A DNA stretch of 64,000 nucleotides, taken from NCBI GenBank assembly GCA_035513335.1, contig DATKCE010000021.1, positions 5,745 through 69,744 on the forward strand, read 5' to 3'. Within the stretch, counting starts at the first letter, position 1. Each line of letters opens with the position of its first letter. Shown piece by piece: positions 7,032 through 49,834 of the stretch. The stretch is from Acidimicrobiia bacterium (lineage in GTDB: Bacteria > Actinomycetota > Acidimicrobiia > Spongiisociales > ZC4RG35). The translations under genes and the position numbers were made by a program. The notes beneath the pieces were generated by a model. It had not been told where the DNA came from, searched no databases, and saw nothing but the letters and a program-made list of their open reading frames with translations.

Positions 7032-7103
7032 CCCCGTTTTCGCGCATAGAACGAGCGGGAAACGCTTGAAACCACCCGCCATTCGATGCGCGAAAACCAG
7101 GGG
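7032..7103. terminator. family-2 palindromic element, copy 1 (arms GTTTTCGCGCAT / ATGCGCGAAAAC)
   Basis: Perfect 12-bp arms at 7036-7047 and 7086-7097, flanked by CCCC/GGGG. Lies between convergent genes, and its end abuts the stop at 7104. Confidence 0.6.
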
Positions 7104-9189: not shown

Positions 9190-10110
9190 CTACCCGGTGC
9201 GGGCGAGGAAGTCTTCGAGGACCTCGGTGTAACGGGCCCGGGCCTTCTCCACGCTGATGTCCCTGCCCAACGCCACCCAGGCCGGCACCCACTCGGCGAT
9301 GTCAGGCGCAGGTCGGCACAACGCCACGGCTTCCCAGTGGGTCAAGTCGGGCAGCGGGCTGTCACTCATCTCTCGATAGCTCTTTGTGAAATGGTCGGCG
9401 ACACGGTCCATGCCCAGATACCGGATGTCGATCGAGCAATAGGCGACGTCCATCTCCCGGTCACCCATGGCCGGTGACTCCCAGTCGACCACCGCGGCCA
9501 GGTCACCGTCTCGCCACAAGATGTTGCCTGGCCAGAAGTCGGTGTGGCTGAACACCTGGTCCGATTCGAGCCCCCGGCTACCGAGGAGGACCCGTCTCCG
9601 GAGGAGATCCTCCCCAAGGGGATGCTCGAGGACCATCTCCGGATTCTCCTGGATCTTCCTCATGTCCTCACCGGCCCCTGGCGGGAAGAGCTCGAGATCC
9701 GACTCTTCGAGACGCACCTCGTGGATGCGCACCAGCACCGCGGCCATCTTCTCGACCCAGTCAAACGGGTTCGATGGGGTCAGCTCGGGGGCACCATCGA
9801 CGAACGAGATGAGGATCGCTCGCTCATCGAACACGCCTTCGGTGTCGATCCAGATCGGAGCCGGCGCGGGGATGTTCGCCCGCTGGAGGAGCTCGAGCGC
9901 CCGGGTCTCCCGGGCGGCCACATCGACCTCACGATCCTCTACCCAGTGCCCGTAGCGGCGCAGGACCAGCTGGGTCGAGCCTTCGGTCAACACGTCCATG
10001 GTGCAGCCCAGGCCCGCCTCGATCCGCTGCTTGTGCAGCAGGGAGGTGGCGCCTATCGCATCACGAACGCGGTCGAGTTGCTCGTCGGTTGGGAGGGGCG
10101 CGTATTGCAT
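9190..10110 (-). CDS. phosphotransferase (APH / choline-kinase fold) family protein
   Basis: 306 aa with catalytic-loop-like HTDFWPGNILW and VVDWE motifs. Confidence 0.8.
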   Translation of the reverse strand: MQYAPLPTDEQLDRVRDAIGATSLLHKQRIEAGLGCTMDVLTEGSTQLVLRRYGHWVEDREVDVAARETRALELLQRANIPAPAPIWIDTEGVFDERAILISFVDGAPELTPSNPFDWVEKMAAVLVRIHEVRLEESDLELFPPGAGEDMRKIQENPEMVLEHPLGEDLLRRRVLLGSRGLESDQVFSHTDFWPGNILWRDGDLAAVVDWESPAMGDREMDVAYCSIDIRYLGMDRVADHFTKSYREMSDSPLPDLTHWEAVALCRPAPDIAEWVPAWVALGRDISVEKARARYTEVLEDFLARTG

Positions 10111-10210
10111 CGGTTGTCACCAGTTAACGAAAACGGGGCGGGTTACCCCAACTCGAGGACGCACCGAACAGGCTAACCGAGGAGCCGCGGGTTCTTCGCT
10201 CTCGAGGCAG

Positions 10211-13200
10211 TCATACGGAGAACGCCTCCCCGATCAACCTCTCCTGCTCCTGTCGATGGGTGCGAGCCGATCCCGTGGCGGTCGATGCCGACGCGGGACG
10301 TCCCACGTAGGTAGGTGCCTTCCCGAAGATCCGCTCTAGATGAGGCTCGACGAACCGCCAGGCACCCTGGTTCTCGGGCTCCTCCTGACACCACACGATC
10401 TCGGCGTCGGGGTATTTGGCCGCGATCTCGGCCAGACGATCTTCGGGGACCGGATACAGCTGCGCTACCCGAACGAGCGCGATGTCCTCCTCCAGCCCTT
10501 CGCCCTCGTCCCGTGCCCGGGTCAGCTCGTGGTAGATCTTCCCGGCACAGACGAGGACCCGGCGCGGCTGGGCGGGTGACTTCGGGTCGTCCAGTACCGT
10601 CTCGAAACGCCCATCGGTGAACAACTCCGTCTTGGAGAACGAGTCCTTTGCCCGAAGCGGCGTCTTCGGGGCGAACACGATCAGCGGTTTCCGCTCTCTG
10701 GTGAGAGCCTGGCGACGGAGCAGATGGAAGTACTGGCCGGTGGTGGCCGGCACCACGACACGCATGTTGTCTTGGGCGCACAACTGCAAAAACCTCTCGA
10801 GCCTCCCCGACGAGTGGTCAGGGCCCTGCCCGTCGTGTCCGTGAGGCAGCAGCATCACCAAAGCCGAAGGCTGGCCCCAGCGGGCTTCCCCGGCTGCGAT
10901 GAACTGGTCGATGACCACCTGGGCGCCGTTGACGAAGTCCCCGAACTGTGCCTCCCAGATGACCAGGTGGTCCGCCCGCTCGATCGAGTACCCGTATTCG
11001 AATCCGACGGCGGCGAACTCGGAGAGGAGTGAGTCGACGATCTCCACGGTGGTGGAGGTCTCGGCGCCGATCTCGGCGAGAGGCGACCATTCCCGGCCCG
11101 TGTCGTGGCACACCATCACCGCGTGTCGGTGGCTGAAGGTGCCGCGCTTGGAGTCTTCCCCGGCCAGTCTCGACCCCACGCCCTGTCTGGCCAGTGTCCC
11201 CAGTGCGAAAGCCTCGGCGGTGCCCCAGTCGATCGCGTCCTCGTCGAGAATGCGGGCCCGGTTCTCCAGCATCTTCACCAGCTTGGGGTGGACCGTGAAG
11301 TCGTCGGGCGGGGACGTCATCTTGGCGAGCACCGCTTCCAACTCGCTGCGCTCCACCCGGGTCGGGGCGCTTTTGCGGGCTCCCAGACCCTCCACCAGCT
11401 TGGGCGCGCCGTCGCTGTCGTCCGCTCTCTTCGCTTGGCTGTCCGAGTCTTGGGTCTCCTCGAACGCCTGGCTGAGGATGTCCCTGAACTCGGCCAGGGC
11501 CGCCTCACCTTCCTCGACGCTGATGTCCCCGTTGTCGACCAGGTGGGCGAGGTACAGCTTCCGCACCGGAGTGTGGTCGTCGATGAGCTTGTACATGAGC
11601 GGCTGGGTGAACGACGGTTCGTCGGCCTCGTTGTGACCACGCCGCCGGTAGCAGACCAGGTCGATGACGACGTCCCGGGCGAAAGTGTTGCGGTATTCGA
11701 CGGCGAACCTCCCGGCTCTCACCACCGCTTCCGGATCGTCTCCGTTGACGTGGATGATGGGAGCCTCGATGGCCTTGGCCACGTCGGTGGCATAGATGCT
11801 GGAGCGGGCATGCTGGACCGAGGTGGTGAAGCCCACCTGGTTGTTGACCACGACGTGGACCGTGCCTCCCGTCTGGTATCCGGAGAGCTGGGAGAGGTGC
11901 AAGGTCTCGACGACCACTCCCTGACCGGAGAAGGCAGCGTCTCCGTGGATGAGCAGCGGCAGGACCTGGTCTGTTCCTCCACTTCCGATGCGCTCCTGCT
12001 TGGCTCGGACCACCCCTTCCAGCACCGGGTCGACCGCCTCTAGGTGAGACGGGTTGGCCACCAACTCGACTGCCATCTCGCTGCCGGTGCTGGTCTCGTA
12101 CTTGCCCGTGGCCCCGAGGTGGTACTTGACGTCCCCGGAGCCCCCGGTGGTGGCCGGGTCGAGTTGGCCCTCGAACTCGGCGAAGACGGTGGCATAGCTC
12201 TTACCGACGACGTTGGTGAGGACGTTGAGCCGGCCGCGGTGGGCCATGCCGATCACCACCTCGGTCTGACCTCCGGCGGAGCCGGCCTCGAGGATCGAAT
12301 CGAGGGCTGGGATCAGCGTCTCGGAGCCTTCCAACCCGAACCTCTTCTGACCGAGGTACTTGGTGTGGAGGAATCGCTCGAACGCCTCCGCCTGGTTGAG
12401 TTTGGCGAGAATGCGCAGCTTCTCCTTGTGGTCCAAGGCCTCGGGCGGGATCTCCACGTACCCCTGGATCCAGCGCTTCTGGTCGGTGTCGGTGATGTGC
12501 ATGTACTCGATGGCGCTGGTGTCGCAGTAGGTCTGGCGCAACCGGGAGAGGATCCGCTTCAGGGGCATGGCCGTCGCTCCCCCAAAACCACCGGTGGCGA
12601 ACTCGCGGTCGAGGTCCCAGATCGTGAGTCCGTAGTAGTGGATGTCGAGCTCGGGATACAGCCGGGGCGGCTTTTGGCGCAAAGGGTCGGTGTCTGCGAT
12701 GAGGTGGCCCTGGGTTCGGTAGGCGTTGATCAGCCGGGCGATGCCGGCTTCCTTCGCGGGTCTCCCCACCGTGACGGCTTCCCGGGCCGGATGTTCGTCG
12801 ATCTCCCAGCGGGCCGGTGTGTAGTGGATGCCGAGCTCGGCGAAGACCTTGTCATAGAAGTCACCCCCTCCCAACAACAGCTCTTCCACCTTGGCGAGCA
12901 GCTCTCCCGAAGTCGCCCCCTGGATGACCCGGTGGTCGTAGGTGGAGGTGAGGGTCACGACCCGGGACAGACCGGCTTCGGCCGCCCGGGCCGGGTCGCT
13001 GCCCCGGTGCTCGGCGGGGTAGGCCACTGCCCCCACACCGATGATGGCGCCCTGGCCCTCCATGAGCCTCGGTGCCGACTGGGTCGTGCCGATCGTGCCC
13101 GGGTTGGTCAGGGTGATGGTGGTGCCTTCGAAGTCGGAGAGCTCGAGCTCGCCGTTGCGGGCCCTGGTCACCAGGTCTTCGTAGGTGAGCCAGAACTCCC

Positions 13201-13870
13201 TGAAGTCGAGTCGCTGTGCCCCTTTGATGTTGGGGGCGACGAGGCTTGCTCGGGCCTCTTCCCCCAGCGAGATGGCCAGCCCGAGGTTGATGTCGCTGCG
13301 AGTCACCTTGTGGGGTTTCCCGTCGATCTCCCGGTAGGCGACATTGACGCCATCGGTGGCGGCGACCGCCTGCACCACCGCCCACCCGATTAGGTGGGTG
13401 AAGCTGACCTTGCGTCCTTCCTGATGACGGCGCAAGTAGGAGTTGACTGTCTCGCGGTTTACCTCGAGGAGTTTGGCGGGGAGGGTGCGCACCGACGTAG
13501 CGACCGGGATGGCGAGGCTCTCGTCCATCCGCGAGGAGATGAGGCGCGCCGGGCCTTTCAGCTCGGTGACGGTCTCGCCTTCGTCATCGTCTTCTGACTC
13601 CGGTGTCTCCTCTGCTTCGGCCGCCTCCATCTGGCGGGTGCCGGGTTGGCGGCGATGATGGGCCGATGCCGACCCGGCCTGCTGTTCCCGTCTCCTGGCT
13701 CGGGCCAGTTCGGGGCTGTGTGGCTCGTAGTCGGCGAAGAACTCTCTCCACACCTCGGCGACCGAGGTGGGGTCGTCGAGGTAACGCCGGTACATGGCGT
13801 CGACTCGAGACCTGTTGGGCCCGAACATCTCTTGGTGTTCTCTCGGTTCGATCGGTTCGATGAGACCCAT
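10211..13870 (-). CDS. kgd: multifunctional 2-oxoglutarate dehydrogenase/decarboxylase (E1 with fused E2-like segment)
   Basis: 1219 aa. An N-terminal acyltransferase-like segment (TYDHRVIQGA) is followed by a TPP-dependent E1 body, as in actinobacterial Kgd/SucA. Confidence 0.93.
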   Translation of the reverse strand: MGLIEPIEPREHQEMFGPNRSRVDAMYRRYLDDPTSVAEVWREFFADYEPHSPELARARRREQQAGSASAHHRRQPGTRQMEAAEAEETPESEDDDEGETVTELKGPARLISSRMDESLAIPVATSVRTLPAKLLEVNRETVNSYLRRHQEGRKVSFTHLIGWAVVQAVAATDGVNVAYREIDGKPHKVTRSDINLGLAISLGEEARASLVAPNIKGAQRLDFREFWLTYEDLVTRARNGELELSDFEGTTITLTNPGTIGTTQSAPRLMEGQGAIIGVGAVAYPAEHRGSDPARAAEAGLSRVVTLTSTYDHRVIQGATSGELLAKVEELLLGGGDFYDKVFAELGIHYTPARWEIDEHPAREAVTVGRPAKEAGIARLINAYRTQGHLIADTDPLRQKPPRLYPELDIHYYGLTIWDLDREFATGGFGGATAMPLKRILSRLRQTYCDTSAIEYMHITDTDQKRWIQGYVEIPPEALDHKEKLRILAKLNQAEAFERFLHTKYLGQKRFGLEGSETLIPALDSILEAGSAGGQTEVVIGMAHRGRLNVLTNVVGKSYATVFAEFEGQLDPATTGGSGDVKYHLGATGKYETSTGSEMAVELVANPSHLEAVDPVLEGVVRAKQERIGSGGTDQVLPLLIHGDAAFSGQGVVVETLHLSQLSGYQTGGTVHVVVNNQVGFTTSVQHARSSIYATDVAKAIEAPIIHVNGDDPEAVVRAGRFAVEYRNTFARDVVIDLVCYRRRGHNEADEPSFTQPLMYKLIDDHTPVRKLYLAHLVDNGDISVEEGEAALAEFRDILSQAFEETQDSDSQAKRADDSDGAPKLVEGLGARKSAPTRVERSELEAVLAKMTSPPDDFTVHPKLVKMLENRARILDEDAIDWGTAEAFALGTLARQGVGSRLAGEDSKRGTFSHRHAVMVCHDTGREWSPLAEIGAETSTTVEIVDSLLSEFAAVGFEYGYSIERADHLVIWEAQFGDFVNGAQVVIDQFIAAGEARWGQPSALVMLLPHGHDGQGPDHSSGRLERFLQLCAQDNMRVVVPATTGQYFHLLRRQALTRERKPLIVFAPKTPLRAKDSFSKTELFTDGRFETVLDDPKSPAQPRRVLVCAGKIYHELTRARDEGEGLEEDIALVRVAQLYPVPEDRLAEIAAKYPDAEIVWCQEEPENQGAWRFVEPHLERIFGKAPTYVGRPASASTATGSARTHRQEQERLIGEAFSV

Positions 13871-13917
13871 TCTTGCGAATCTGTCCAGATCTGCATGCCT
13901 GGGCCCGACGCGACAAG

Positions 13918-13972
13918 ACCCGCCTCCCCGATCCTGGGATCAGAGAGACGGATCTTCGGTCGGTTCACCTGT
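13918..13972. repeat. ssrA-flank module b, partial degenerate copy
   Basis: ACCCGCCTCCCCGATCCTGGGATCAGAGAGACGG... aligns with 19617-19660 and 14590-14630. Confidence 0.5.
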
Positions 13973-13996
13973 AGTGAGTCGTAGGCGTTCACGAGA

Positions 13997-14028
13997 ACAG
14001 AGCCGGCACTCGAGGGTCCCGGCTCTGT
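13997..14028 (-). terminator. hairpin downstream of the 14039 membrane-protein gene
   Basis: Perfect 10-bp stem ACAGAGCCGG / CCGGCTCTGT with a 12-nt loop, 11 nt after the stop. The T-tract is weak. Confidence 0.45.
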
Positions 14029-14038
14029 CTTTGGGTGT

Positions 14039-14392
14039 CTACAGGATCCAGATCAGAGCGAAGATGATGGCGGCACCGAAGGCTGCCAGTGCAAGCACTG
14101 TCGGCACGACCACACCCAGCGTCCAAGCCGAATCCCGGACGTAGTCCATCCGTGCGAGGAACCCGAATGCGATGGTGAGCAGGACACCGGCCACGATGAA
14201 CATGCCGAAATACCAACCCTCGACAAGCCCACCGAGGAACCAGTCACTGGGCGCGTAGTACATCCACGCACCCACTCCTACCGCCAGCAAACCAGCGATA
14301 CCCGTCACGAACTCTGTGATCCGGGAGCGCCCGGTCGGCATCCGGGTGACCTCCGCTGTCGGCTGCTCGCGTAGAGCTGTCACAGAGACCAC
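14039..14392 (-). CDS. hypothetical membrane protein (117 aa)
   Basis: Three or four hydrophobic segments. No family recognised. The start may be the internal M (MPTGRS). Confidence 0.55.
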   Translation of the reverse strand: MVSVTALREQPTAEVTRMPTGRSRITEFVTGIAGLLAVGVGAWMYYAPSDWFLGGLVEGWYFGMFIVAGVLLTIAFGFLARMDYVRDSAWTLGVVVPTVLALAAFGAAIIFALIWIL

Positions 14393-14589
14393 CTCCTTTC
14401 GCGAGAGCCCGGTCTGGGCTCTCCACGCCGATCATGTGATGATTACGCTGGCCCGACTAGAGGCTTTGGACCCGAATTGGGGACAGGGCGAGCGGCGCGG
14501 CGTCGACGCGGCGGCGGGACACCGTGACCTGCTACCCAGGGCGAGCCTCGACGTCACCGACCCGCCGTCAGGACATGGAGGATCGCAAG

Positions 14590-14663
14590 CCCGCTCTCCG
14601 ACCCCCCGATCTGAGAGACGTTTCGCTTTCTCAGGTGCCACTCTTTCGTTGGCACCCGCCTGT
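14590..14663. repeat. ssrA-flank module b, left copy
   Basis: Shares the hairpin GGTGCCACTCTTTCGTTGGCACC (14634-14656) and its flanks with 19617-19695. About 70 percent identity with indels, judged by eye. Confidence 0.6.
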
Positions 14664-14916
14664 CGCAGCCAACGAGATACCTGGCCAATGGCACAGACGG
14701 ACACCCGGCGAGATCGCCGACGCACCACCCCGAAGCGCCTCACCGCACCTGCCGAGCCCGCCGAGCTCGCTTCCCCGAAACGCACCAGCCACCACCATTG
14801 ACAGCGCCCCCGGGGCCGTACAGTCACCACCGTGAAGCGAACGATCGGTGTGCCCGGCAGCAATCGGAGCTGGGCGATAGTGAAGATCGTCCAGAACATG
14901 ATGTTGGAGCGTCACC

Positions 14917-15402
14917 ATGGCGAAGCGGAACTACCTGGTGGAGGGCTTGTCTGGCGCCGGCAAGTCTGCGGTCTATGAGGAGCTGATCCGACGCGGCTAC
15001 AAGGCCATCAGTACCGACCGCACCTGGGCCTATCACGCCGATTCCGGCACCGGTCTCCGAAGTGGGCCCATCACCCACGACACCTGGATGTGGGACCCGA
15101 AAAAGGCGGTCAGCGAACTCGAGAGCCCGGAACCAGAGGTGTTGTTTGTGTGTGGAAGCAGCCGCAATCGCGACCACTTCCTGCCCTATTTCACCAAGGT
15201 GTTCAACCTGCGCATCGATGATGACACGATGCGTCGCCGCCTCGAAGCGCGCACCGACGACGACTGGCCGCTTGGTCAGGAGGGTGTCGAGCTCATGCTT
15301 GAGCTGAATCGGAGCGACGAAGGGCCGGCCGGAGCGATAGATGTGGACGCCACGCAGCCTCTCGACCAGGTGGTCGATGAACTGCTTCGCTTAGCAAGTT
15401 GA
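14917..15402 (+). CDS. P-loop NTPase / kinase-like protein
   Basis: 161 aa with Walker A GLSGAGKS at the N-terminus. GGAG lies 9 nt upstream of the ATG. Confidence 0.7.
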   Translation: MAKRNYLVEGLSGAGKSAVYEELIRRGYKAISTDRTWAYHADSGTGLRSGPITHDTWMWDPKKAVSELESPEPEVLFVCGSSRNRDHFLPYFTKVFNLRIDDDTMRRRLEARTDDDWPLGQEGVELMLELNRSDEGPAGAIDVDATQPLDQVVDELLRLAS

Positions 15403-15409
15403 GCAAGTT

Positions 15410-15463
15410 CTCCGACGCGCACAAGCGTCTCGGTGACACCGGATCCGGCGATCGAACACGACA
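15410..15463. repeat. ssrA-flank module a, left copy (54 bp)
   Basis: 51/54 identical to 19561-19614; only GAT versus CCT differs. Contains GACGC..GCGTC and the CCGGATCCGG palindrome. Confidence 0.9.
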
Positions 15464-15591
15464 GCTAACAAAAATACCTGGCCTGGTGGTTCGCGACCCT
15501 TACTGACCCTCGATTACACGCGAAACGCTCGAAAATTTCACCCAGTTTCTTCCAGGATTGGGTGATGTGAGTACGTGGCCAGCGCCAGCTC

Positions 15592-16036
15592 CTATTTCGG
15601 TGTGGCCTTCATCAGGATCCGACCTTCGTGCTGTTCGAAGGCGACGAAACCCAGGCTCCGATAGAGGCTTCGGGCCGGGTTGATCTCGAAAACATGAAGG
15701 GAGACGGCCCTTCCCCCTTCTTTGGCCTGCTGTAGGACGTCTCGCATTACCGCTGCTCCGATACCTTCGGTTCTGCCAGTCAGGATGGACCTCGATCCGG
15801 GTCACATAGACCTCATCATCACGGTCCTCCACACCAAGCACGCCGATGTCTTCTCCTTCGACTCTGATGACGAGAACGTTCTCGGGCTGGAACCACCGGT
15901 CGAAGAAGTCCCACTGGACCGCATCGTCCCAGGGCCCATAGAGCTGTTCTACGTAAGGGCCCATGGCAGCTCGATGGAGCTCAAACAGAAACTCCCTGTC
16001 TCGATTCGTGGCCGGTCGAAGTGCTAGTCCCTCCAT
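15592..16036 (-). pseudogene. GNAT family N-acetyltransferase, apparent 1-nt frameshift
   Basis: Starts MEGLALRPATNRD. After ...HPDWQNR a 1-nt shift near 15766 restores GIGAAVMRDVLQQAKEGG...ILMKATPK-stop (15592-15594), a textbook GNAT motif A. This is part of track ORF 15500..16816. Confidence 0.6.
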
Positions 16037-16200
16037 CCCCCTTGCAACGTAGCCATCACTGCGCTTATCGACAGCATCTGAGAGCTCGGCGACGAAGTTC
16101 TGCACAGGATGGGGGGTCTCCATGAAGCGGACATTCCGAGCCGCACCCCAGTCGGCAACCAAGGGTCCGCCACTCGTGACGGGGACAGCACGTACTTCTA

Positions 16201-16813
16201 CTACGCGTCCGGTCGCCGAAGTCCTCGACTCACAAGCGTCTCGTAGATCGTCTCGGCGTTTTGCCGGGCGCCGACTTTCCGTGGTGTCGACCTGCACCAC
16301 CTCTTCGGCTGGTGGCTGGTAGAGCTTGGTGTGTTGCCTGTGTCGGCGGTACCCCTCTGGGTCCGAACCTTTGAGCCGTGCGATCCGATCGGGGTTGTCA
16401 ATGCGGAGGACCTGCTCTTCGACGTCACAGTCGACCATGACCGACAGAAACAGTGAGCCGCGGCGGTGAGCAAGCGAACGGATGCGGTCGTAGTGTTTCG
16501 CGCCTTCCTCATCGTCCTCCAGCACGTTGGTGAATACGTAGCTGTTGGACTTGGGTGCGAGGTCTTCGATGGTCCCGAGCACCGCCTCGCGGATCGGTTC
16601 CACGCGTTCCCAGATCTCTGTTGGGATCGGAGACCTGCCATCCCACTTGAACAGTGTCAGAAGCGGGATGTTGATGAGCTGGTTATCGACCAGCACAGCG
16701 TCAAGAAGTTCCGCCAGGTGCGATCCGACGGTCCGCTTGCCTACACCCGGGTAACCAAGCAGAAAGACGACGCAGGTCTCGTGTTTCTCAAATCCGTCAT
16801 CGATTGGAGTCAT
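16201..16813 (-). CDS. AAA/P-loop ATPase (kinase-like), possible C-terminal frameshift
   Basis: ATG 16813 overlaps the upstream stop (TGATG), with GGAGG 9 nt upstream. Walker A is GYPGVGKRT. After ..VQVDTT the alternative frame (track ORF 16201..16641) gives a more protein-like end with a stop at 16201. Confidence 0.55.
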
Positions 16814-17364
16814 CACTCCGCACCTCCAAGTTCGACCCTCGCAGGCGAGAAACTCAGGTCGACGGCGACATAACCCGGAAACCGGAGCTGCGACCAGATC
16901 TCAACCGGATCCACATCTGCGAGGCCAGCTACAAGAACGCTGATCGCCAGACCATGAGAAACCAGGCACACACCGCTCCCGAAGCGGGCAATTGCTTCCT
17001 CCACCGCCTCGGTCATCCGCCCGACGACATCAGAACGTGACTCCCACCCGTCGACACGTTCACCTTCCAGCCACCGCCGAGCGACCGATTCGTAGTCGCC
17101 TTCCACCCAAGGCCTACCCACCTCACGCAGGCGCCGGTCGATGACGATCTCGTTCGAGAAGGCTTCTGCGGTCTGTTTCGCCTTAACCTCGTCGCTGCTC
17201 ACAACGTGAGTGTCGGCTGGGAGGTCGAGCAGCCTGGCCAACGCTTGGGCATCGCTGCGGCATTGATCAGACAACGGCCAGTCTTGGGGCGCACTGTCCC
17301 TGTCGACAACCGGCAGTGCGTGGCGCACGAGAACGAGAGACGTGCTGGAGGGCATTACGAACAT
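16813..17364 (-). CDS. histidine phosphatase (PGAM-like) family protein
   Basis: The LVLVRHA motif follows directly after MFVMPSSTS. The rest of track ORF ..17697 upstream overlaps the divergent gene. Confidence 0.75.
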   Translation of the reverse strand: MFVMPSSTSLVLVRHALPVVDRDSAPQDWPLSDQCRSDAQALARLLDLPADTHVVSSDEVKAKQTAEAFSNEIVIDRRLREVGRPWVEGDYESVARRWLEGERVDGWESRSDVVGRMTEAVEEAIARFGSGVCLVSHGLAISVLVAGLADVDPVEIWSQLRFPGYVAVDLSFSPARVELGGAE

Positions 17365-17409
17365 GGTGGCTGACCGGGGTACCGTCGCCAATCGACTTTC
17401 GTTCCGCTC

Positions 17410-18672
17410 ATGGCGGACTCCCCATCCCTTCGTACTATCGCCTCTATGGACGGACGGAATGGCTTCATTGATCCGGACGGCAACGAGGGTTCGATGGTCG
17501 ACGACCCGGCGTCTGCAGTTGTCGCCGGGTACGACCAGCTTGCATCCCACTGGGACGACTGGGCAGATGACGTGCACCCCGATCTGCGTGCCGAGTACCT
17601 GAAGCAACTGGAGGCTCAGCTGTCCCCGGGATCGGACGTCCTCGAACTCGGCTGCGGCACAGGTCGGCCGGTAGCGGCCCGTCTTGCCACCATCCACCGC
17701 TATGTCGGAAACGACTCATCACCACAGATGGTGAAACTGGCACAACGAAGTGCCCCCGACGGACGGTTCCACGTCGCCGACATGACAGCACTCAACCTCC
17801 CCGAGAACAGCTTCGATGCTGTGATCGCCTTCTACTCGATCATCCACGTGCCTCGAGACGACCAACCGGAGCTGTTCTCTCGAATCCGATCCTGGCTCCG
17901 GCCGGATGGGCTGTTTGTGGGGTGTCTCACTGCTGGTGACTCTCCCCAAGGGTGGGAGGACGACTGGCTGGGAGGCGGCCCCATGTATTGGAGCGGTTTC
18001 GATGCTGACACCAACCGGCGGCTGTTGGAAGAGGCCGGCCTGGAAGTGGACAGCTCAGAAGTCATCTCTCAGATGGAAGGAGACACCGAAGTCCGCTTTC
18101 TGTGGGTGGAGGCCCATCGCCCTCGGGTTGATCTGTCGGCCGATCCGCCGAAGTACTCCGTCTCTGAACTCGAACGACGGTTCTTGCTGTCCGAACTGCC
18201 TCCGGGGCTCTCCCAACCCCGGCGGATCCGCGACCTGTACATCGAAGGAACCAGGCTGCGTCTGCGTACCGTGGAGGATGCGGATGGCATCGTTCTCCAG
18301 CGCAAGCTGGGCCACAAGCGTCGGACTGAAGAGGCGAATCCCTCCATCGTCAACCACACGAGCCTCTATCTGAACGAGAGGGAGTACGAGACACTGTCTC
18401 CACTGCCCGGCCGCTCGGTCGTGAAGACTCGTTGGATAGTGGAAGCCAATGGCCGCCGGGCCGCTGTAGACGTGTTCGAGGGGGAACTGCAGGGGCTGAC
18501 CATGCTCGAGGTGGATTTCGACACGTACGAAGACATGGACGTCTACACCCCGCCTGCATGGGCTGGCGTCGAAGTAAGCCACATGAGCGAGTTCTCTGGG
18601 GGTGAACTCTCCGCACTCGAATCCGAAGAGCTGGAAGAGTTGCTACGGGGGGCCTCACCTCCAAGCGGATAA
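17410..18672 (+). CDS. class I SAM-dependent methyltransferase fused to a CYTH (triphosphate tunnel) domain
   Basis: Methyltransferase motif I VLELGCGTGRP in the N-terminal half. The C-terminal half has the CYTH-like signature SELERRFLL, LRLR, and LTMLEVDFD...PAWAGVEV. The start could also be 17446 or 17494. Confidence 0.75.
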   Translation: MADSPSLRTIASMDGRNGFIDPDGNEGSMVDDPASAVVAGYDQLASHWDDWADDVHPDLRAEYLKQLEAQLSPGSDVLELGCGTGRPVAARLATIHRYVGNDSSPQMVKLAQRSAPDGRFHVADMTALNLPENSFDAVIAFYSIIHVPRDDQPELFSRIRSWLRPDGLFVGCLTAGDSPQGWEDDWLGGGPMYWSGFDADTNRRLLEEAGLEVDSSEVISQMEGDTEVRFLWVEAHRPRVDLSADPPKYSVSELERRFLLSELPPGLSQPRRIRDLYIEGTRLRLRTVEDADGIVLQRKLGHKRRTEEANPSIVNHTSLYLNEREYETLSPLPGRSVVKTRWIVEANGRRAAVDVFEGELQGLTMLEVDFDTYEDMDVYTPPAWAGVEVSHMSEFSGGELSALESEELEELLRGASPPSG

Positions 18673-18778
18673 CTGGGTCAGAACTCAGCGCTTCGTGTCT
18701 CGTCGGGTTTCTAGCGAAAGGGGGGGTCTTCAGTTAGCTACACAGGAACGCACACCGGCGAGCGGGTTCGGTATCGGC

Positions 18779-19222
18779 CTATTCGTTGGTGGGTACCGTA
18801 TCGAGGGCGTTGCGGATCCGCTCGCCAACCGCCTCGAGCTCTGCCCTTGCAGGTCGAGTCTCCCAATCGGCGATGAGTTCGACCCCGTCGCCGTCGTAGC
18901 GCGGAAACACATGGAGATGAGCGTGGAAGACCTCTTGGAAGGGGGCTTCGCCGTCGGCGTAGAAGAGATTGACACCGTCGCAACGAAGGCCGCTCTCCCG
19001 TAACGCTGCCGCCATGCGCTGAGCGACGTTGAACAGATGAGCACCTGTTTGGAGATCGATGTCGGCCAGAGCGGGCAAATGTGCCCGCGAGACGACCATC
19101 AAATGCCCAGGCGTAACAGGACCGATGGTGAGAAAGACAAGGACGGTTTCGTCCTCGTAGAGGATCGTGGCAGGTGCGTCGCCGCCTGCGATCTTGCAGA
19201 AGATGCAGTCTGGGTCGGTCAT
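18779..19222 (-). CDS. HIT family hydrolase
   Basis: 147 aa with CIFCKI at the N-terminus and the histidine triad HAHLHVFPR. Confidence 0.88.
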   Translation of the reverse strand: MTDPDCIFCKIAGGDAPATILYEDETVLVFLTIGPVTPGHLMVVSRAHLPALADIDLQTGAHLFNVAQRMAAALRESGLRCDGVNLFYADGEAPFQEVFHAHLHVFPRYDGDGVELIADWETRPARAELEAVGERIRNALDTVPTNE

Positions 19223-19560
19223 GCGGGCTCGTTCGCGCTTGAGGCTATCTCAGGGCAGTGCTCTTGTCGGGCGTCTCTACCGCTCATCAACGAAGACGCT
19301 GTGTGATCACGGAGATTCGTTCCATCGCTCCTTCTCTGGTGATGGGCCACTGGTGCCCATGGAAGAGCTTCATGCCAGTCGCCCGCTCCTCCACGGCCTG
19401 GAGAGGTGTTCACGGTCGGAGCGCGGGCACTCCCTCCCCCAGTGGGCGGTGTGGGTAAGGAGATTCAAGGCCGAGTGGATTTGAGCCTCCCCCATCTAAA
19501 CCCCCTGAGAGGCCTCTTCTCCCCTGCCCTGAGCTGGCCGGCTCGGGGTTTGTTTGTGCC

Positions 19561-19614
19561 CTCCGACGCGCACAAGCGTCTCGGTGACACCGGATCCGGC
19601 CCTCGAACACGACA
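19561..19614. repeat. ssrA-flank module a, right copy (54 bp)
   Basis: 51/54 identical to 15410-15463. Confidence 0.9.
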
Positions 19615-19656
19615 AAACCCGCCTCCTCGATCCTTAGATCTCAGAGGCGGGTTTTT
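19614..19656 (-). terminator. rho-independent-type terminator downstream of tmRNA
   Basis: Stem ACCCGCCTC / GAGGCGGGT with an 18-nt loop. It is flanked by AAAA on one side and TTTTT on the other, so it could act in both directions. Confidence 0.65.
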
Positions 19657-19695
19657 CGTCTGTTCGGGTGCCACTTTTTCGTTAGCACCTACTTG
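19617..19695. repeat. ssrA-flank module b, right copy
   Basis: Contains the terminator hairpin plus the hairpin GGTGCCACTTTTTCGTTAGCACC (19667-19689). Ends at the tmRNA 3' end. Confidence 0.6.
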
Positions 19696-20043
19696 TGGAG
19701 GTGCGGGGAGTCGAACCCCGGTCCGCTAAGCCGTCAGCGTTGGCATCTCCGAGCGCAGTCGTCAGCGATTTTCGGTCACAGGAACTCTGACGACGAGTTT
19801 CCCTGCGCCTATCCGGAGTTGTTCTTAGCCGACCGATCCCGGAATCCAGGACGGAGCATCCCACATTGCGGCGCCCTGACCTGACCGGGTGGGAACCAGC
19901 CAGGAGGACGGGCTACTTAATTAGGCAGCCAGTGCGAAGTTGTCTTCGGCACTTGTTGGTTGTTCCGGTTTGTTGACGGGGCCCCGGAGACCCCGGCTCG
20001 CTTCCAACGCCTCAACACTCAACGTCGAAACCGTTTCACCCCC
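19696..20043 (-). ncRNA. ssrA: transfer-messenger RNA (tmRNA)
   Basis: The 5' GGGGGTG pairs with the 3' CACCTCC (G3-U pair) ahead of discriminator A. T-arm GGGGTTCGACTCCCC. The tag reading frame ends ...GCC GAA GAC AAC TTC GCA CTG GCT GCC TAA (AEDNFALAA). CCA is not encoded. Adjacent to smpB. Confidence 0.9.
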
Positions 20044-27436: not shown

Positions 27437-27576
27437 CGCGAACCGAGGGCGCTGGACTTCGCTCAACGGGGCCTGCAACCCTGGGTTCGCGGGAGGCGGC
27501 GGGTCGCTGCAAACCGAGGGCGCCAGACTTCGCTCAACGGGGCCTGCAACCCTGGGTTCGCGGGAGGCGGCGGGTC
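27437..27576. repeat. family-1 structured intergenic repeat, two tandem copies (71-bp period), orientation A
   Basis: Core GAGGGCGCTGGACTTCGCTCAACGGGGCCTGCAACCCTGGGTTCGCG occurs twice and is followed each time by GGAGGCGGCGGGTC. The second copy ends on the ahcY stop codon. Confidence 0.9.
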
Positions 27577-31344: not shown

Positions 31345-31403
31345 GGGAACGAGAGTGTAGAGGTGGACCGGTGGTGGGGCAGCCGGGTGGGCGCCACCTT
31401 CCC

Positions 31404-31526
31404 GTTCTCGGGGCGTTGGACTTCGCCCAGCGGGGCCTGCAACCCAGGGTTCGCGTACGCGGCGAGGCGAGCGTGAACTGAGGGCGCTGGACTTCGCTCA
31501 GCGGGGCCTGCAACCCAGGGTTCGCG
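31404..31526. repeat. family-1 structured intergenic repeat, two tandem copies (71-bp period), orientation A
   Basis: Copies at 31404-31455 and 31473-31526 in the divergent manB / GT2 intergenic region. Confidence 0.9.
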
Positions 31527-31563
31527 GTGGGCGCAGGGCCGTTCCTACACTTCGGGCCGCTCC

Positions 31564-34798: not shown

Positions 34799-35077
34799 CT
34801 ACAACGATTCGTCGAGGAGGCGTCCGATGTACCGGCTGCGTCGCTTCCCGTCCTCGGTCCAGTAGGCGTACCAATAGGGCCCATGCGGGCACTTGGTGCA
34901 CCCGGACTTGCCGCACCGGACCATCTGCTTCCTGAGGCTGACGTTGGGCTCGTCGTTGGGGCCGATGGCCCCGATGCGCTCCAACTGGGCCCGGGTCAGG
35001 ATCTGCAGTCGACGCAGCCCGTGCTCGTCGAGGTCCTTGACCGCGTCGAGGAGGTCGCGGTCTAGTGCTCCGGCCAC
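34799..35077 (-). CDS. small CxxC protein, DUF6788-like (92 aa)
   Basis: C-terminal CGKSGCTKCPHGPYWYAYWTEDGKRRSRYIG resembles the DUF6788 pattern (from memory, not searched). GTG start. The first 5 codons belong to the duplicated R1/R2 block. Confidence 0.55.
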   Translation of the reverse strand: MAGALDRDLLDAVKDLDEHGLRRLQILTRAQLERIGAIGPNDEPNVSLRKQMVRCGKSGCTKCPHGPYWYAYWTEDGKRRSRYIGRLLDESL

Positions 35078-35145
35078 TGACGTTGGTGATGTTCAGGGCG
35101 AGCCAGGGGCGCCGATGGCAAGGACGCAGGACGCAGGCGCACCCG
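35062..35145 (-). promoter_or_regulatory. duplicated leader block R1 (68 nt upstream plus first 16 nt of CDS)
   Basis: 80/84 identical to 39850-39933. Confidence 0.8.
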
Positions 35146-35195
35146 TTTTCGCGCATAGGACGAGCGGAAAACGCGCCATTTGATGCGCGAAAACG
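35142..35195. terminator. family-2 palindromic element, copy 2
   Basis: Perfect 12-bp arms GTTTTCGCGCAT (35145-35156) and ATGCGCGAAAAC (35183-35194), about 35 nt downstream of the DUF3499 stop. Confidence 0.6.
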
Positions 35196-37130: not shown

Positions 37131-39865
37131 GGTCGACGCCTCCCCCAGACGATCATGCCGATCGCCCCGACCAGGAGGGCCAGTGTCGCCCCGGGAGGGA
37201 CGTAGTCGATCGACTGTGGCGAATACCAGGCCCGGCCCGGGCTCCCGTCGACCGACCCGGACCAATCGGCGCGGGTGCCGTCGGGCTCCCAACCTTCGCC
37301 GTGATTGAAGGCGATGGAGACGTCGCCGTCGGTGCGGTCCCCGGAGAATCCGGTGCCCGATCGGGTCCAGGTCACTTCGTCGTTGCCGGCCAGCGGCGCC
37401 GCTTCCCCGTTCTCGTAGACCCGGGAATCTGGGTCGAGAGGAGTGGGGACCAGGTCGAGCTGAGCCCGGAGAGCTTCGTCGAGCACGAACGTGGGGCCTT
37501 CCAGCACCACCCAATCGATTGCGAACGGAGCGAGGGCCGCTCCCGGTCGGAGCTCGGCGCCGGAGCCGATCTCGGCGAGAACGGTCTCGAGACGCTCGTC
37601 GCCCTCCTGGCGCTCCGGCAGCCAGACCTCGTCCTGAGTTGTGCCCTGGCCGTCGAGGAGTCGATACCAGAACCCGGGCCCGGATCGAGCCTCACCGGGG
37701 ATCGAGTCCCTATCGACCGAGGCATAGAGGATGCGGCCCGGACCATGATCGTCGGCGAGGGTCACCGAGAATGCCAGCCTCTCGTTGAGATCGCCGTCCG
37801 GCAAGCCCAGTCTCCCGTTGCCAACCGTCCCCAGGGAGACCACCATGATGGCGGCCGCGCCGACGGCGGCAACCAGCCGGACCGGGTCGCGGGAGAACGA
37901 GTCGAGTGCGGCGGCCACCACGAGTGCAGCACCTAGAGACCCCGTGATCAGGACCGCCTCCTGCAGACCAGGGCCGAGGGCGAGCCCGCGGGCCAGGGCC
38001 AACATCGTCAATGCGATGACACCACCGGTGAGGCCCACCGTGCGGATCCGGCCCTCGGCCAGGAACAGAGGGACCGCGCCCACGAGGATCAAGATCGGCC
38101 ACAGCTGATCCACCGGGGCGTAGACGGCTCGTGACCCGTCGAAGACCCACCGCGGATCGGCTGCCAGGAAAGCGGCTCCGGACAAACCCCCGACCACAGA
38201 GATCAGGCCGAGAAGGACCCCGCCCCGGTCACCGCCGAACAGACGCCACACCAGCACCACCAGCAACGGGACGAGAGCGAGCAGTGGAGAGAAGGACGCC
38301 ACCACCAGGGCGGTGAGCAGCGCCCATCCGACGTAGGTGAGCCGGCTCCGGCCGAACTCATGGGGATGGACGAACGTGGCGCGCACCGCCCAGGGGAGAA
38401 ACGCCGCCGCCGCCAACGCGAGCCACGACCCGCGACCCACTAGCACTGCCGTCCCCGGTCCCGCGATCACCACCAGGCCGGCCAGGTAGCGACCGGGGCC
38501 GCTCAATCCGAGGCGGCCGCCGAGACGACCGACACCGATGATGCCCACCAACGCCGTGCCGATGGTCAGCAAGGCTCGGGCAGCGTCGGCGGCGCCGAAC
38601 CAGATCAGCGAGAGCAGGCCGGTCAGCCCGACCGATGGGTGCACCGGGGCGGAGGAGCCGAGCCCGGCTTCGTTCCAGCCGGCGAACCACCGCTCGAGCG
38701 CCACCGTGGCGGGCTCGAACGGGAACGAGAGGCCGGAGTTTGCCATCCCGGTGAAGACGATCGCCCGAGCCGAGACGAGGGCGATGACCGCCGCCACGAC
38801 CGCCCCCCAGATGCCCGGGGAGCCCCACAATCGACGCGACCTCCGTGCTAGCGCCTGGTCGTCGTCGAACATCGACAGGACCCGCCCACTCACCTCTTCC
38901 CCGATCGTCCGGAGACGGATCGAGCCCTTTGCCTGGAAGCGGAAGAGCTCCTCGTCGCCTTCCGAGCGGATCGACCGCAGCCGGCGCCGTTGCCTCAACG
39001 TCGAGTACAGGTGGATGAGATTCCAGATCCACGACAGGAGGTGGCGGACCAGAGGCTGCCAGCGCAGGAGTAAGAGGCTGGCCACCGAGTCGAAGACCGA
39101 CACCAGCAGGTCGTAGGGCACGACCCAGAGCAGCGTCAGGGGTCGGTATGCGATGAGCATGGCCCGGAGCCGCCCGGCCTGTTCCCGCCAGCCCTTGCCC
39201 CGCTGGCCGCAGCGCGCCTGGTGATACACCTCGGACGAAGGGACGCTGATCACCTTGCCCCCGGCCAGCCTGGTCCGCTGTGAGAAGTCGAGACCGGCGG
39301 CTACCGGCGGCAGCAGCGGGTCGAGACCGCGCAGACCCTGGGCGAGGTCACGGCGCACCAGCATCGACGCCGACTGCACGAAGGCGACCTCGCGGACCAC
39401 GTCGTACTGCTGGAGGTCGATCTCGCCCTCGTCGAGCCCCGAGTAGGGCTCGCCGAACACGTCGGTGGCGCCACCCACCGACTCCAGCTCGTCCATCGTC
39501 CCTGCCTTGAGCAGCTTGGAGCCGGCCAGAGACGCTTCGTTCCGCTCGATCTCTGAGATCAGTGCCCCCAACGCATCGGGGCGGGGGCGGGCGTCGGCGT
39601 GGAGCAGCCACACGTAGTCGAACGACGAGTCGGTGGAGCCGATCGCCTCCTCGAGAGTCTCTGCCGTGGCCACCCCTGCGTCGAGATCGAGATCCTCGCC
39701 CACGACCACGACCACGACGTCGGGGGCGGGCTCGTAGACTTGTCTCCCGACCACGGCCATTGCCGCCTCGAGGTCGGCATCTGCCACCGCCGTGATGACA
39801 ACACGCACGCGGGGCGCGTCGGATACCTCGTCGAGGGTCTCGTCGTCCGCTAGTGCTCTGGCCAT
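37127..39865 (-). CDS. glycosyltransferase family 2 domain fused to a large multi-TM domain (912 aa)
   Basis: N-terminal GT2 features (VRVVITAV.., YVWLLHADARP), then many TM helices and a C-terminal extracytoplasmic region. Confidence 0.85.
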   Translation of the reverse strand: MARALADDETLDEVSDAPRVRVVITAVADADLEAAMAVVGRQVYEPAPDVVVVVVGEDLDLDAGVATAETLEEAIGSTDSSFDYVWLLHADARPRPDALGALISEIERNEASLAGSKLLKAGTMDELESVGGATDVFGEPYSGLDEGEIDLQQYDVVREVAFVQSASMLVRRDLAQGLRGLDPLLPPVAAGLDFSQRTRLAGGKVISVPSSEVYHQARCGQRGKGWREQAGRLRAMLIAYRPLTLLWVVPYDLLVSVFDSVASLLLLRWQPLVRHLLSWIWNLIHLYSTLRQRRRLRSIRSEGDEELFRFQAKGSIRLRTIGEEVSGRVLSMFDDDQALARRSRRLWGSPGIWGAVVAAVIALVSARAIVFTGMANSGLSFPFEPATVALERWFAGWNEAGLGSSAPVHPSVGLTGLLSLIWFGAADAARALLTIGTALVGIIGVGRLGGRLGLSGPGRYLAGLVVIAGPGTAVLVGRGSWLALAAAAFLPWAVRATFVHPHEFGRSRLTYVGWALLTALVVASFSPLLALVPLLVVLVWRLFGGDRGGVLLGLISVVGGLSGAAFLAADPRWVFDGSRAVYAPVDQLWPILILVGAVPLFLAEGRIRTVGLTGGVIALTMLALARGLALGPGLQEAVLITGSLGAALVVAAALDSFSRDPVRLVAAVGAAAIMVVSLGTVGNGRLGLPDGDLNERLAFSVTLADDHGPGRILYASVDRDSIPGEARSGPGFWYRLLDGQGTTQDEVWLPERQEGDERLETVLAEIGSGAELRPGAALAPFAIDWVVLEGPTFVLDEALRAQLDLVPTPLDPDSRVYENGEAAPLAGNDEVTWTRSGTGFSGDRTDGDVSIAFNHGEGWEPDGTRADWSGSVDGSPGRAWYSPQSIDYVPPGATLALLVGAIGMIVWGRRRP

Positions 39866-39933
39866 TGATGTTGGCGATGTTCAGGGCGAGCCAGGGGCGC
39901 CGATGGCAAGGACGCAGGACGCAGGCGCACCCG
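39850..39933 (-). promoter_or_regulatory. duplicated leader block R2 (68 nt upstream plus first 16 nt of CDS)
   Basis: 80/84 identical to 35062-35145. Confidence 0.8.
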
Positions 39934-40105
39934 GAGGTGCGTCAAGGACGAGGACGCAGCAAGCGGTGTCATCTGGCCGTCCTGAACGCGGCGAACGTCG
40001 GTGGTCGGGGCACAAGCTGCGGAGTCGGTTGGGACATGCGAGCTGCCATTGTGAACGGGTGCACGGCACTGAGCAATATCGAGTGGTCGAGCTGAGAGGC
40101 GGAGA

Positions 40106-41709: not shown

Positions 41710-41764
41710 CGCGAACCCAGGGTTCCAGGCCCCGCTCAGCGAAGTCCAGCGCCCTCGGTTCGCC
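41710..41764. repeat. family-1 structured intergenic repeat, single copy, orientation B
   Basis: CGCGAACCCAGGGTTCCAGGCCCCGCTCAGCGAAGTCCAGCGCCCTCGGTTCGCC, between the convergent cofE and ugd. Confidence 0.9.
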
Positions 41765-41770
41765 GGAAGG

Positions 41771-49789: not shown

Positions 49790-49834
49790 CGCGAACCCTG
49801 GGTTGCAGGCCCCGCTGAGCGAAGTCCAGCGCCC
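49790..49834. repeat. family-1 structured intergenic repeat, single copy, orientation B
   Basis: CGCGAACCCTGGGTTGCAGGCCCCGCTGAGCGAAGTCCAGCGCCCCGAGAACGCG. Shares the GTTCTCGGGG variant arm with copy 31404. Confidence 0.9.

Follow-up and report, generated by a model that had tools for sequence, protein, structure and literature searches.

The locus examined here raises the question of how a run of small accessory genes came to lie directly against the 3' end of a transfer-messenger RNA (tmRNA) gene. The stretch analysed, hereafter the window, is a 64-kb, high-G+C (~0.66) actinobacterial segment (GenBank assembly GCA_035513335.1, contig DATKCE010000021.1, positions 5,745 to 69,744), whose nearest relatives in public assemblies are metagenome-assembled genomes of Acidimicrobiia. 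In this segment the genes smpB, ftsX, ftsE, prfB and secA lie upstream of the tmRNA gene, ssrA, and the islet lies downstream of it. An initial annotation of the sequence had described two direct-repeat modules, a and b, nested around a lower-G+C gene islet, and had read them as the footprint of two successive insertions next to ssrA. The analyses reported here make it probable that this is an additive, non-autonomous islet, built at ssrA by stepwise recombinational insertion into b and a. They also reveal a further repeat module, X, which had been overlooked and which lies at the distal end of the inserted units.

Organization of the repeat array downstream of ssrA

The 3' end of ssrA at position 19695 is the anchor of the array, the first base of which, 19694, follows it immediately; the 135 bp below 19695 constitute the 3' flank of ssrA. 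Read from ssrA, the order of elements is b0, a0, the cargo of unit 1 and X1; a1, a P-loop kinase gene and an X-end remnant; b1 and a membrane protein gene; b2, kgd and a second X-end remnant; and finally aph. The repeat coordinates bear out the order proposed initially (b, P-loop gene, a, cargo, a, b, ssrA), and the islet was correctly placed; its extent was not, the block that varies within the clade spanning 10134-19694 (9.5 kb) and taking in kgd. The tmRNA gene and the modules are as follows.

19695-20043, minus strand: ssrA (tmRNA gene), called by ARAGORN with tag AEDNFALAA and by Rfam RF00023 with 171.6 bits
19615-19694, minus strand: b0, the ssrA trailer hairpin (19667-19689) and intrinsic terminator (~19614-19655), left end of unit 1; from folding and homology to the L040/L041 spacer
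19561-19614, minus strand: a0, the copy of the 54-nt direct repeat nearer to ssrA; from its 52/54 identity to 15410-15463
15459-15557, minus strand: X1, a module of ~100 nt, distal end of unit 1; profile E=6e-28, with homologues three times in L007 and also in L032
15410-15463, minus strand: a1, the copy of the 54-nt repeat farther from ssrA, fused straight to X1 with no b between; from repeat and junction alignments
14663-14685, minus strand: X-end remnant CCAGGTATCTCGTTGGCTGCGAC, closing unit 2 just before b1; from junction alignment and pair table
14586-14664, minus strand: b1, a degenerate b with intact hairpin and decayed terminator, left end of unit 3; profile E=2.7e-15 and folding
13908-13966, minus strand: b2, an incomplete b that retains the terminator half and immediately precedes the kgd leader; 78% identity to b0, profile E=3e-6, folding at -45.2 kcal/mol
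10116-10134, minus strand: X-end remnant GTTTTCGTTAACTGGTGAC, 5 nt before the aph start codon, right limit of the variable block; L003 synteny resumes at 10133

The two copies of module a are identical at 52 of 54 positions (96%), the sole difference being GA versus CC. Both sites of this repeat had been given correctly by the initial annotation, which had counted 51 identities and a GAT/CCT difference. A 40-nt core of the module has two exact matches in the window, with none expected in shuffled sequences. Together with positions 19492-19560, a0 is homologous to positions 10996-11117 of L007, one of the related loci and contigs designated here by L numbers, where this sequence begins the first unit; the homology of a0 and the next ~70 nt to the start of that unit therefore identifies b0-a0 as the left end of unit 1. 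In contig L043, an AAA_18 kinase gene is likewise followed by the first 14 nt of module a.

In the sense of ssrA, module b comprises a short hairpin, a long G+C-rich hairpin and a run of U residues (-51.7 kcal/mol, z=-8.2), and is the native ssrA trailer and intrinsic terminator. A simple terminator scan missed it, its stem and loop being beyond the limits of that scan. Since a single b lies between ssrA and kgd in L040 and L041, b is the native ssrA-kgd spacer, and the islet lies inside it. The b hairpin GGTGCCACTYTTTCGTTRGCACC is found in the window only at 14634-14656 and 19667-19689, with no occurrence expected, and ungapped identity to b0 amounts to 77% for 14621-14663 and 78% for 13908-13966. 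A profile search of the window with b returned 19611-19696, 14586-14664 (E=3e-15) and 13912-13966 (E=3e-6), and no further match. The recurrence of b reported earlier at 14590-14663, and partially at 13918-13972, is hence confirmed, with limits at 14586-14664 and 13908-13966. The 96% identity of the a copies, as compared to 77-78% for the b copies, agrees with the a pair being the product of the most recent event. All three copies (b0, b1 and b2) have terminator loops of a 'GATC...GATC' type, as do the internal b copies of L007, and differ in this from the native type of L042.

Modules a and b have no copy elsewhere in the window, and in relatives they occur only at the homologous locus; this restriction to a single locus speaks against their being dispersed repeats unrelated to ssrA, a possibility raised with the original proposal. 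Searches of a, b and X against Rfam families, at gathering score and at E<=1, matched only tmRNA, plus chance matches. ARAGORN also called a second, permuted 'tmRNA*' at 19128-19785, overlapping the 3' end of the real ssrA and the region of the HIT-family gene; this call, without Rfam support, is almost certainly spurious.

Module X and the X|b junction

Module X marks the distal end of the inserted units. The blocks of X1 in the window are CTGGAAGAA, GGTGWAAT, CGTGTAATCG, a variable hairpin and GGYCAGGTATTTTTGTTAGCTG, and the blocks conserved across copies are CTGGAAGAA, GGTGTAAT, CGTGTAATCG, a hairpin of variable sequence and GGTCAGGTATTTTTGTTAGCTGGCGAC. Alignment of the junctions outlines a simple boundary rule, by which units start with b directly after ...(C/G)AC and end with ...GTTAGCTGGYGAC. 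For the first unit, the preceding ...AC corresponds to the final two bases of the ssrA region ...CCTCCAC, and the outer limits of the array are ...CCTCCAC| of ssrA and |AACCGATG of aph.

The end of X and the start of b form an inverted repeat, consisting of TTTTTGTTAGC, a spacer of 14-19 nt and GCTAACGAAAAA. Its inner 6 bp are Watson-Crick pairs in all five X|b junctions available (two in L007, one in the window and two in L034), a small sample of related junctions. Three variants of the arms are observed (GTTAGC/GCTAAC, GTTGGC/GCCAAC and GTGAAC/GTTCAC), with one outer pair also compensated; in the window, the arm GTTGGC of the X-end at 14663-14685 pairs with GCCAAC of b1. Differing arm variants coexist within one genome, and every junction is self-complementary. 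This is suggestive of X|b arms that travel together, as they would on a circle with contiguous X-end and b-start, or of a hairpin that matters in itself.

In profile searches that covered the window and ~0.4 Mb of related loci, X and b had no copy away from this locus. Exact-pattern scanning of a metagenome collection identified X in one further overlapping contig pair (L031 and L032), and the same kind of scan did not find X/b in phage, plasmid or viral collections. A divergent subfamily of X lies between accessory genes in L034 and L038. Two candidate readings of X itself were discarded: local alignment of X to the last 80 nt of ssrA scores as shuffled sequences do (p=0.16-1.0), leaving no ground for deriving X from the ssrA 3' end by displacement or divergence, and a resemblance to a T-arm and acceptor (…GCGAACCACCA), noted by eye, was supported by neither ARAGORN nor alignment.

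State of the locus in related genomes

A scan for SmpB with one genome per species yielded 13 close loci, and look-ups of Kgd added L040, L041 and L042. The locus presents three states: (i) ssrA followed by aph; (ii) ssrA, a single b, kgd and aph; and (iii) ssrA, an array, kgd and aph. In state (i), L003, L005, L008, L011 and L014 align collinearly with the window to either side of the locus, the alignments stopping at 19695 and resuming at 10110-10133, and L009, L010 and L012 are assigned by gene order; in L008, L012 and L014 the ssrA 3' end lies ~4-5 nt from the aph ATG. State (ii) is represented by L040 (13% flank divergence) and L041, which carry smpB, ssrA, one b, kgd and aph, and no X. 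These two loci are the empty site for the islet, of the single-copy kind that the initial annotation had suggested seeking, and both they and the relatives in which ssrA adjoins aph are free of the islet genes, so that the same genes are not found at this place in relatives without the repeats.

State (iii) is found in the window and in L007 (genome JBKHKD01, ~19% diverged). In L007, copies of b (10910-10995, 11755-11843 and 12859-12945) and of X (11659-11755, 12332-12424 and 12761-12859) separate other small genes upstream of kgd, and L007 is an independent array with the same modules and different genes. The nearest relative, 3.6% diverged and represented by contigs L002 and L042, has assembly breaks right after smpB and inside b, and the short contigs L001, L004 and L013 end at or just before the smpB/ssrA boundary. 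Breaks at this boundary are the product expected of a repeat-bearing, strain-variable stretch. A 170-bp relic persists in L003, which has no kgd here, and combines a b hairpin with an end that weakly resembles X (profile E=0.05). The neighbour-joining tree built on the 2.6-kb flank has outgroups (L011, L012 and L014) that are all in state (i), and the placement of kgd beside ssrA is therefore derived.

Some further features of these loci were noted. The presence of kgd between ssrA and aph is limited to a subclade (the window, L040, L041, L042 and L007), and in the window the gene is flanked on the left by b and on the right by the X-end remnant. The identity of Kgd homologues falls sharply, from at least 83% to at most 65%, and relatives without kgd at this site may carry a different kgd elsewhere, or none. 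The same site has been used otherwise in L009 (10878-11957) and L006 (10878-12527). In L009 a 26-nt copy of the ssrA 3' end lies ~940 bp downstream, the footprint of a classical integrase island, and in L006 a MerR-like/adenylate-cyclase-like gene directly follows ssrA in place of aph.

Cargo genes, composition and gene shuffling

The cargo of the units, with the basis of each assignment, is as follows (no strand is assigned to the first two entries; GC3 denotes G+C content at third codon positions).

15464-19560: cargo of unit 1, the newest and compositionally foreign block; Pfam and composition
19223-19560: non-coding stretch of unit 1, 338 nt; open reading frame (ORF) and Pfam survey
18779-19222, minus strand: HIT-family gene, unit 1; Pfam
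17410-18672, plus strand: S-adenosylmethionine (SAM)-methyltransferase gene (420 aa), unit 1, its C-terminal half without a Pfam family; Pfam
16813-17364, minus strand: histidine phosphatase gene, unit 1; Pfam
~16202-16816, minus strand: AAA_18-like kinase gene, unit 1; Pfam
~15598-16036, minus strand: GNAT acetyltransferase gene, frameshifted, unit 1; Pfam and frameshift analysis
14917-15402, plus strand: P-loop (AAA_18) kinase gene (161 aa), cargo of unit 2; Pfam
14039-14392, minus strand: predicted membrane protein of 117 aa with no Pfam family, cargo of unit 3; GC3 0.75
10211-13870, minus strand: kgd, multifunctional 2-oxoglutarate decarboxylase/dehydrogenase, native in composition and present here only in a subclade

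The 4.1 kb between the two copies of a are compositionally foreign. The G+C content of 15464-19560 is 0.605, whereas 464 background windows of 4.1 kb average 0.665±0.012 with a minimum of 0.640 (z=-4.9), and its tetranucleotide distance (z=10) lies above that of all background windows. The lower G+C content that had been estimated inside the islet thus stands up to a windowed analysis, in which the difference is large. GC3 is 0.68-0.70 in the unit 1 genes and 0.83-0.89 in core genes, with intermediate values for the P-loop gene and the membrane protein gene (0.75) and a value of 0.85 for kgd.

The GNAT reading frame is broken near 15775-15790, and a 438-aa ORF at 15500-16816 is a fusion artefact, joining the kinase gene to the 5' part of the GNAT gene and an out-of-frame read-through into X1. 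The P-loop kinase at 14917-15402 may start at a GTG at 14881. A suggested 'CYTH' domain in the C-terminal half of the 420-aa methyltransferase was without Pfam support.

Several cargo genes recur elsewhere, some of them with other neighbours. Unit 1 is present in L039, from another assembly, with 92.5% identity over 3.2 kb, and L033, from an independent sample and run (SRR8556377), is 100% identical to 17823-19590 (1.8 kb) and stops 30 nt into a, which speaks for this part of the assembly being real. The histidine phosphatase gene has 87% DNA identity in L034, among other neighbours, and 74% identity in L038, where a GNAT-methyltransferase fusion comes next, as it does in L007. L038 also carries the P-loop gene, at 89% identity, with its order relative to the phosphatase changed and a b-like hairpin/GAACAGACGAAA element adjoining it. 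L034 (9.9 kb), L038 (4.3 kb) and positions 13000-16700 of L007 contain many small-molecule-modifying enzymes in shuffled gene orders, including APH, APH_6_hur, GrpB-hydrolase and NUDIX-glyoxalase proteins, methyltransferases, GNATs and histidine phosphatase. Comparison of these contigs suggests a common pool of resistance- or detoxification-like accessory genes.

The AAA_18 kinase gene at 14917-15402 is exceptionally conserved and widely distributed: protein clusters that share 83-95% amino-acid identity with its product number at least 120. At the DNA level it is 86-91% identical in L044 and L045, labelled as Chloroflexi, and in L043 and L046, in unrelated contexts (L044 and L045 share one), and the gene has a G+C content of 0.60-0.64, below that of the host loci (0.68-0.69). 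No vehicle is recognisable, and the gene gives the impression of having been transferred promiscuously on its own. Exact protein matching returned one 1.1-kb contig only for SmpB, and none for the P-loop protein.

Searches for recombinases and integration signatures

No recombinase domain was detected by Pfam in the island genes, and the ORFs read from the two non-coding stretches (14393-14916 and 19223-19560) contained no recombinase remnant at E<=1. A scan of 30 further window ORFs (high-GC3, non-core) detected no recombinase at 1e-5, eight of these ORFs having no Pfam match at all. The initial annotation had recognised no integrase, excisionase or transposase and had deemed the element decayed or non-autonomous, and both statements fit these scans and the frameshifted GNAT gene. 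A recombinase associated with X/b was likewise not found in L007, L034, L038 or L031/L032. The terminal helix-turn-helix (HTH) protein of L034, considered as a resolvase (HTH_7, E=4e-4), was rejected, its sequence consisting of two sigma-70 region 4/LuxR-type helix-turn-helix units.

Searches for integration signatures were also negative. A blastn-short search of the window found no displaced ssrA fragment longer than 11 nt, and the tmRNA covariance model, at E<=1, matched only the real gene in 13800-19720. A regular-expression search of both strands of 10100-19700 for attC pairs (RYYYAAC...GTTRRRY, 57-141 bp apart) gave 0 matches, and no Phage_integrase-type match indicative of IntI was present in the window ORFs scanned. 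The earlier reading of insertions adjacent to ssrA holds, and the locus lacks the classical tRNA/tmRNA-integrase footprint: the repeats are trailer and terminator sequence, not displaced ssrA.

Proposed stepwise insertion beside ssrA and its alternatives

We propose that at least three successive insertions would have taken place into the ssrA trailer/terminator segment, in which b is followed by a. The initial count of two falls short of this number, the third unit being b1 with the 117-aa membrane protein gene and ending at 13908-13966. The starting state would have been a single b between ssrA and kgd, as in L040 and L041. Every incoming DNA would have had a b-like (or a-like) sequence of its own as left end and an X module as right end, and its recombination beside ssrA would have left a new ssrA terminator proximally and an X|b (or X|a) junction distally, moving older units away from ssrA. 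The units may have entered as circular molecules with contiguous X-end and b-start, either through a trans-acting site-specific recombinase acting on the X-end/b-start inverted repeat or through Campbell-type homologous recombination via the 54-135 bp of b/a homology. For the primary event we favour the site-specific route, because the limits of the array are exact at the ssrA and aph ends and naive genomes have no homology there. Homologous recombination is plausible for the latest, a-flanked insertion, and for the later events we consider a trans-acting site-specific enzyme and homologous recombination about equally likely.

The junction at which a1 is fused to a slightly truncated X1 (…GTTAGCTGT|CGTGTTCGA) could have either of two histories. 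A circle carrying X1|a-cargo may have recombined with a resident a, by homology (for which 54 bp would suffice) or site-specifically, or a canonical X1|b-a junction may have lost b through an 85-bp deletion between TG microhomologies.

Several observations weigh against the stepwise scheme. The absence of b from X1|a1 requires precisely such an 85-bp deletion or another crossover site, and the third unit has no recognisable X. The mobility of the units is something that we infer from comparison only, no recombinase, circular junction or excision product having been seen. Only ~10 copies of X, from ~6 sequence contexts, are available, and the exact-pattern metagenome scan gave two contigs, a weak sample from which to judge how general the X/b architecture is; within its genome, the restriction of a, b and X to this locus holds for the 64-kb window, and dispersed copies may exist outside it. 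Furthermore, the neighbour-joining tree is nearly a star around the clade of the window, with poorly resolved inner branches, and the polarity of some states is uncertain, as for L003, where loss competes with never having gained the array.

Among the alternatives, a real but minor possibility is a flexible island assembled by RecA-dependent recombination of relatives' DNA, with ssrA/b/a and X or b as portable homology and no dedicated recombinase, in which the repeats would be by-products of Campbell-type single crossovers and unequal exchange. The lengths of a (54 bp, 96%) and b-a (135 bp) suffice for homologous recombination, there is no recombinase in cis, and the co-variation of the X|b arms is what would be expected of an X and a b that remain contiguous, with the crossover deeper in b/a; in addition, the difference between the loops of b0, b1 and b2 and those of L042, the closest relative, suggests b-replacing exchanges. 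The b copies, at 77-78% identity, are nevertheless a poor RecA substrate, and both b and X are missing from the naive L008, L012 and L014, although the limits of the block fall exactly at the ssrA end and just before the aph start; the first insertion therefore cannot have used homology. It is very improbable that the islet is a classical tRNA/tmRNA integrase island, with the crossover inside ssrA and an integrase gene since lost. Such an island would account for the position at ssrA and the foreign composition, and the relative L009 has one, but neither 10134-19694 nor the rest of the window contains a displaced ssrA fragment, X is unlike the ssrA 3' end, and the repeats start only past the last ssrA base.

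The 11-12-nt motif that lies inverted 5-9 nt from the unit ends, the 'AC' at every boundary and the cargo-less 170-bp version in L003, which resembles a miniature element, would be compatible with non-autonomous transposon-like units, bearing subterminal inverted repeats (GCTAACGAAAAA on the left and TTTTTGTTAGC on the right), targeting (C/G)AC and served by a transposase in trans. We regard these as improbable: copies lie at one locus in every genome piece examined, no transposase was found in the ORFs scanned, and (C/G)AC is far too frequent to explain insertion exclusively at ssrA. An integron-like cassette array without an integrase, in which X-b would act as attC, is barely credible, despite small and often single-gene units between imperfect palindromes that appear to keep pairing rather than sequence, and cargo of a cassette type (GNAT, APH, methyltransferase, kinases, NUDIX and glyoxalase). 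Besides the negative searches for attC pairs and IntI, the X-end/b-start hairpin, at ~39 nt, is below any attC, the deduced crossover falls in the spacer and not at the stem base, and several units contain at least four genes in both orientations. Similarly hard to sustain is an assembly artefact joining two strain variants through the shared 54-nt a, even though the window comes from a metagenome-assembled genome and the repeat would be a branch point in the assembly graph; the copies of a differ at two adjacent bases, each with unique flanks within read length, the X1|a1 junction sequence is unique, and L007, from another assembly, has the same modular repeat architecture.

Other repeats and genes in the window

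The window also contains a 68-nt intergenic repeat family (GCGAACC...GGGTTCGCG), often in tandem pairs and unrelated to a, b and X, with the following copies.

27438-27505 and 27509-27576
31402-31469 and 31473-31540
41711-41778 (62%, apparently inverted)
49790-49834

An AbiEi-type antitoxin gene (49886-50404) adjoins a copy of this repeat. A 103-nt direct repeat pair (88%; 35062-35164 and 39850-39952) surrounds 4.8 kb with glycosyltransferase-like and DUF5719 genes, a 33-nt repeat pair (94%) is present at 7033-7065 and 35142-35174, and a solitary PIN-domain gene lies at 57793-58218.

Comparison with known systems

Genes for tmRNA are textbook landing sites for islands, and an islet at this position is in itself expected. 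A bolder proposal, which we consider possible but doubtful, is that X-b is the recombination site of an undescribed gene-capture platform in Acidimicrobiia, in which circular units of one to a few genes are inserted at the last tmRNA base by a recombinase encoded elsewhere. Units of such a platform would bring their own ssrA terminator and arrays would grow from the ssrA end, making it an ssrA-anchored functional analogue of the integron, able to hold a core gene, kgd, between b and X. If a trans-acting enzyme does recognise X|b, high-G+C Actinomycetota would have a new way to stockpile kinases, acetyltransferases, methyltransferases and phosphatases; if homologous recombination alone is at work, the locus would illustrate how an additive island can be built in nature from portable homology.

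The array shares features with integron cassette arrays, namely small units, repeated imperfect palindromes, growth at one fixed end and small-molecule-modifying cargo; in the five junctions compared, a small and related sample, pairing may prevail over sequence as it does in those arrays. It differs from them in having no attC cores detectable by regular expression, a shorter hairpin, a crossover in the spacer and not at GTT, no IntI and an anchor in ssrA instead of attI. To our knowledge, integrons are essentially unreported in Actinobacteria. Like cis-mobilizable elements (CIMEs), the locus presents tandem repeat-flanked segments at an attachment site, a0 and a1 flanking 4.1 kb and the b copies flanking older units, with no recombination or transfer genes found. 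The definition of a CIME refers to a cognate element that bears an integrase and occupies the same site, and no cognate X/b element was found by exact-pattern scanning of genome, metagenome, viral, plasmid and phage collections. Miniature inverted-repeat transposable elements and other transposons with terminal inverted repeats differ from the units described here in having dispersed copies, all X/b units lying at one locus, although subterminal inverted motifs and a boundary 'AC' are present.

Genomic islands at tRNA and tmRNA genes, as defined in Islander (PMC4383910), and the tycheposons of Prochlorococcus (bioRxiv 10.1101/2020.12.28.424599) grow additively beside a tRNA-like gene, push older elements inward and leave degenerate remnants; they are bounded by a regenerated target and a displaced fragment (partial tRNAs) and rely on tyrosine integrases. 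In terms of the Islander definition, the islet adjoins a tmRNA gene, is absent from the site in relatives and has an atypical composition; a displaced target fragment as distal direct repeat and an integrase gene are missing from it.

The nearest described case is that of the ssrA-associated genomic islands of Dehalococcoides (McMurdie et al. 2011, PMC3146451), which form tandem islands of low G+C content downstream of the single-copy tmRNA gene and break synteny. Each of their units has ssrA, or a 20-bp direct repeat copying the ssrA 3' end, as its boundary, the insertion point being within the T-loop. In most of them a serine recombinase module of the CcrB-like type (DsiB/DsiA) lies next to attL, and units without integration genes have been read as cis-mobilizable and gained by accretion (PMC3146451). 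Tandem islands downstream of the tmRNA gene are common to both systems. In contrast to the Dehalococcoides islands, the islet has no repeated ssrA fragment and no recombinase that we could find, and its repeats are b, the 54-nt a and X. Three features depart from the textbook picture: the repeated reuse of the site without a recombinase in cis, the lack of a duplicated piece of the target, and the use of a terminator module, b, and a conserved X of ~100 nt as the limits of the units, at whose junction compensatory changes preserve an inverted repeat.

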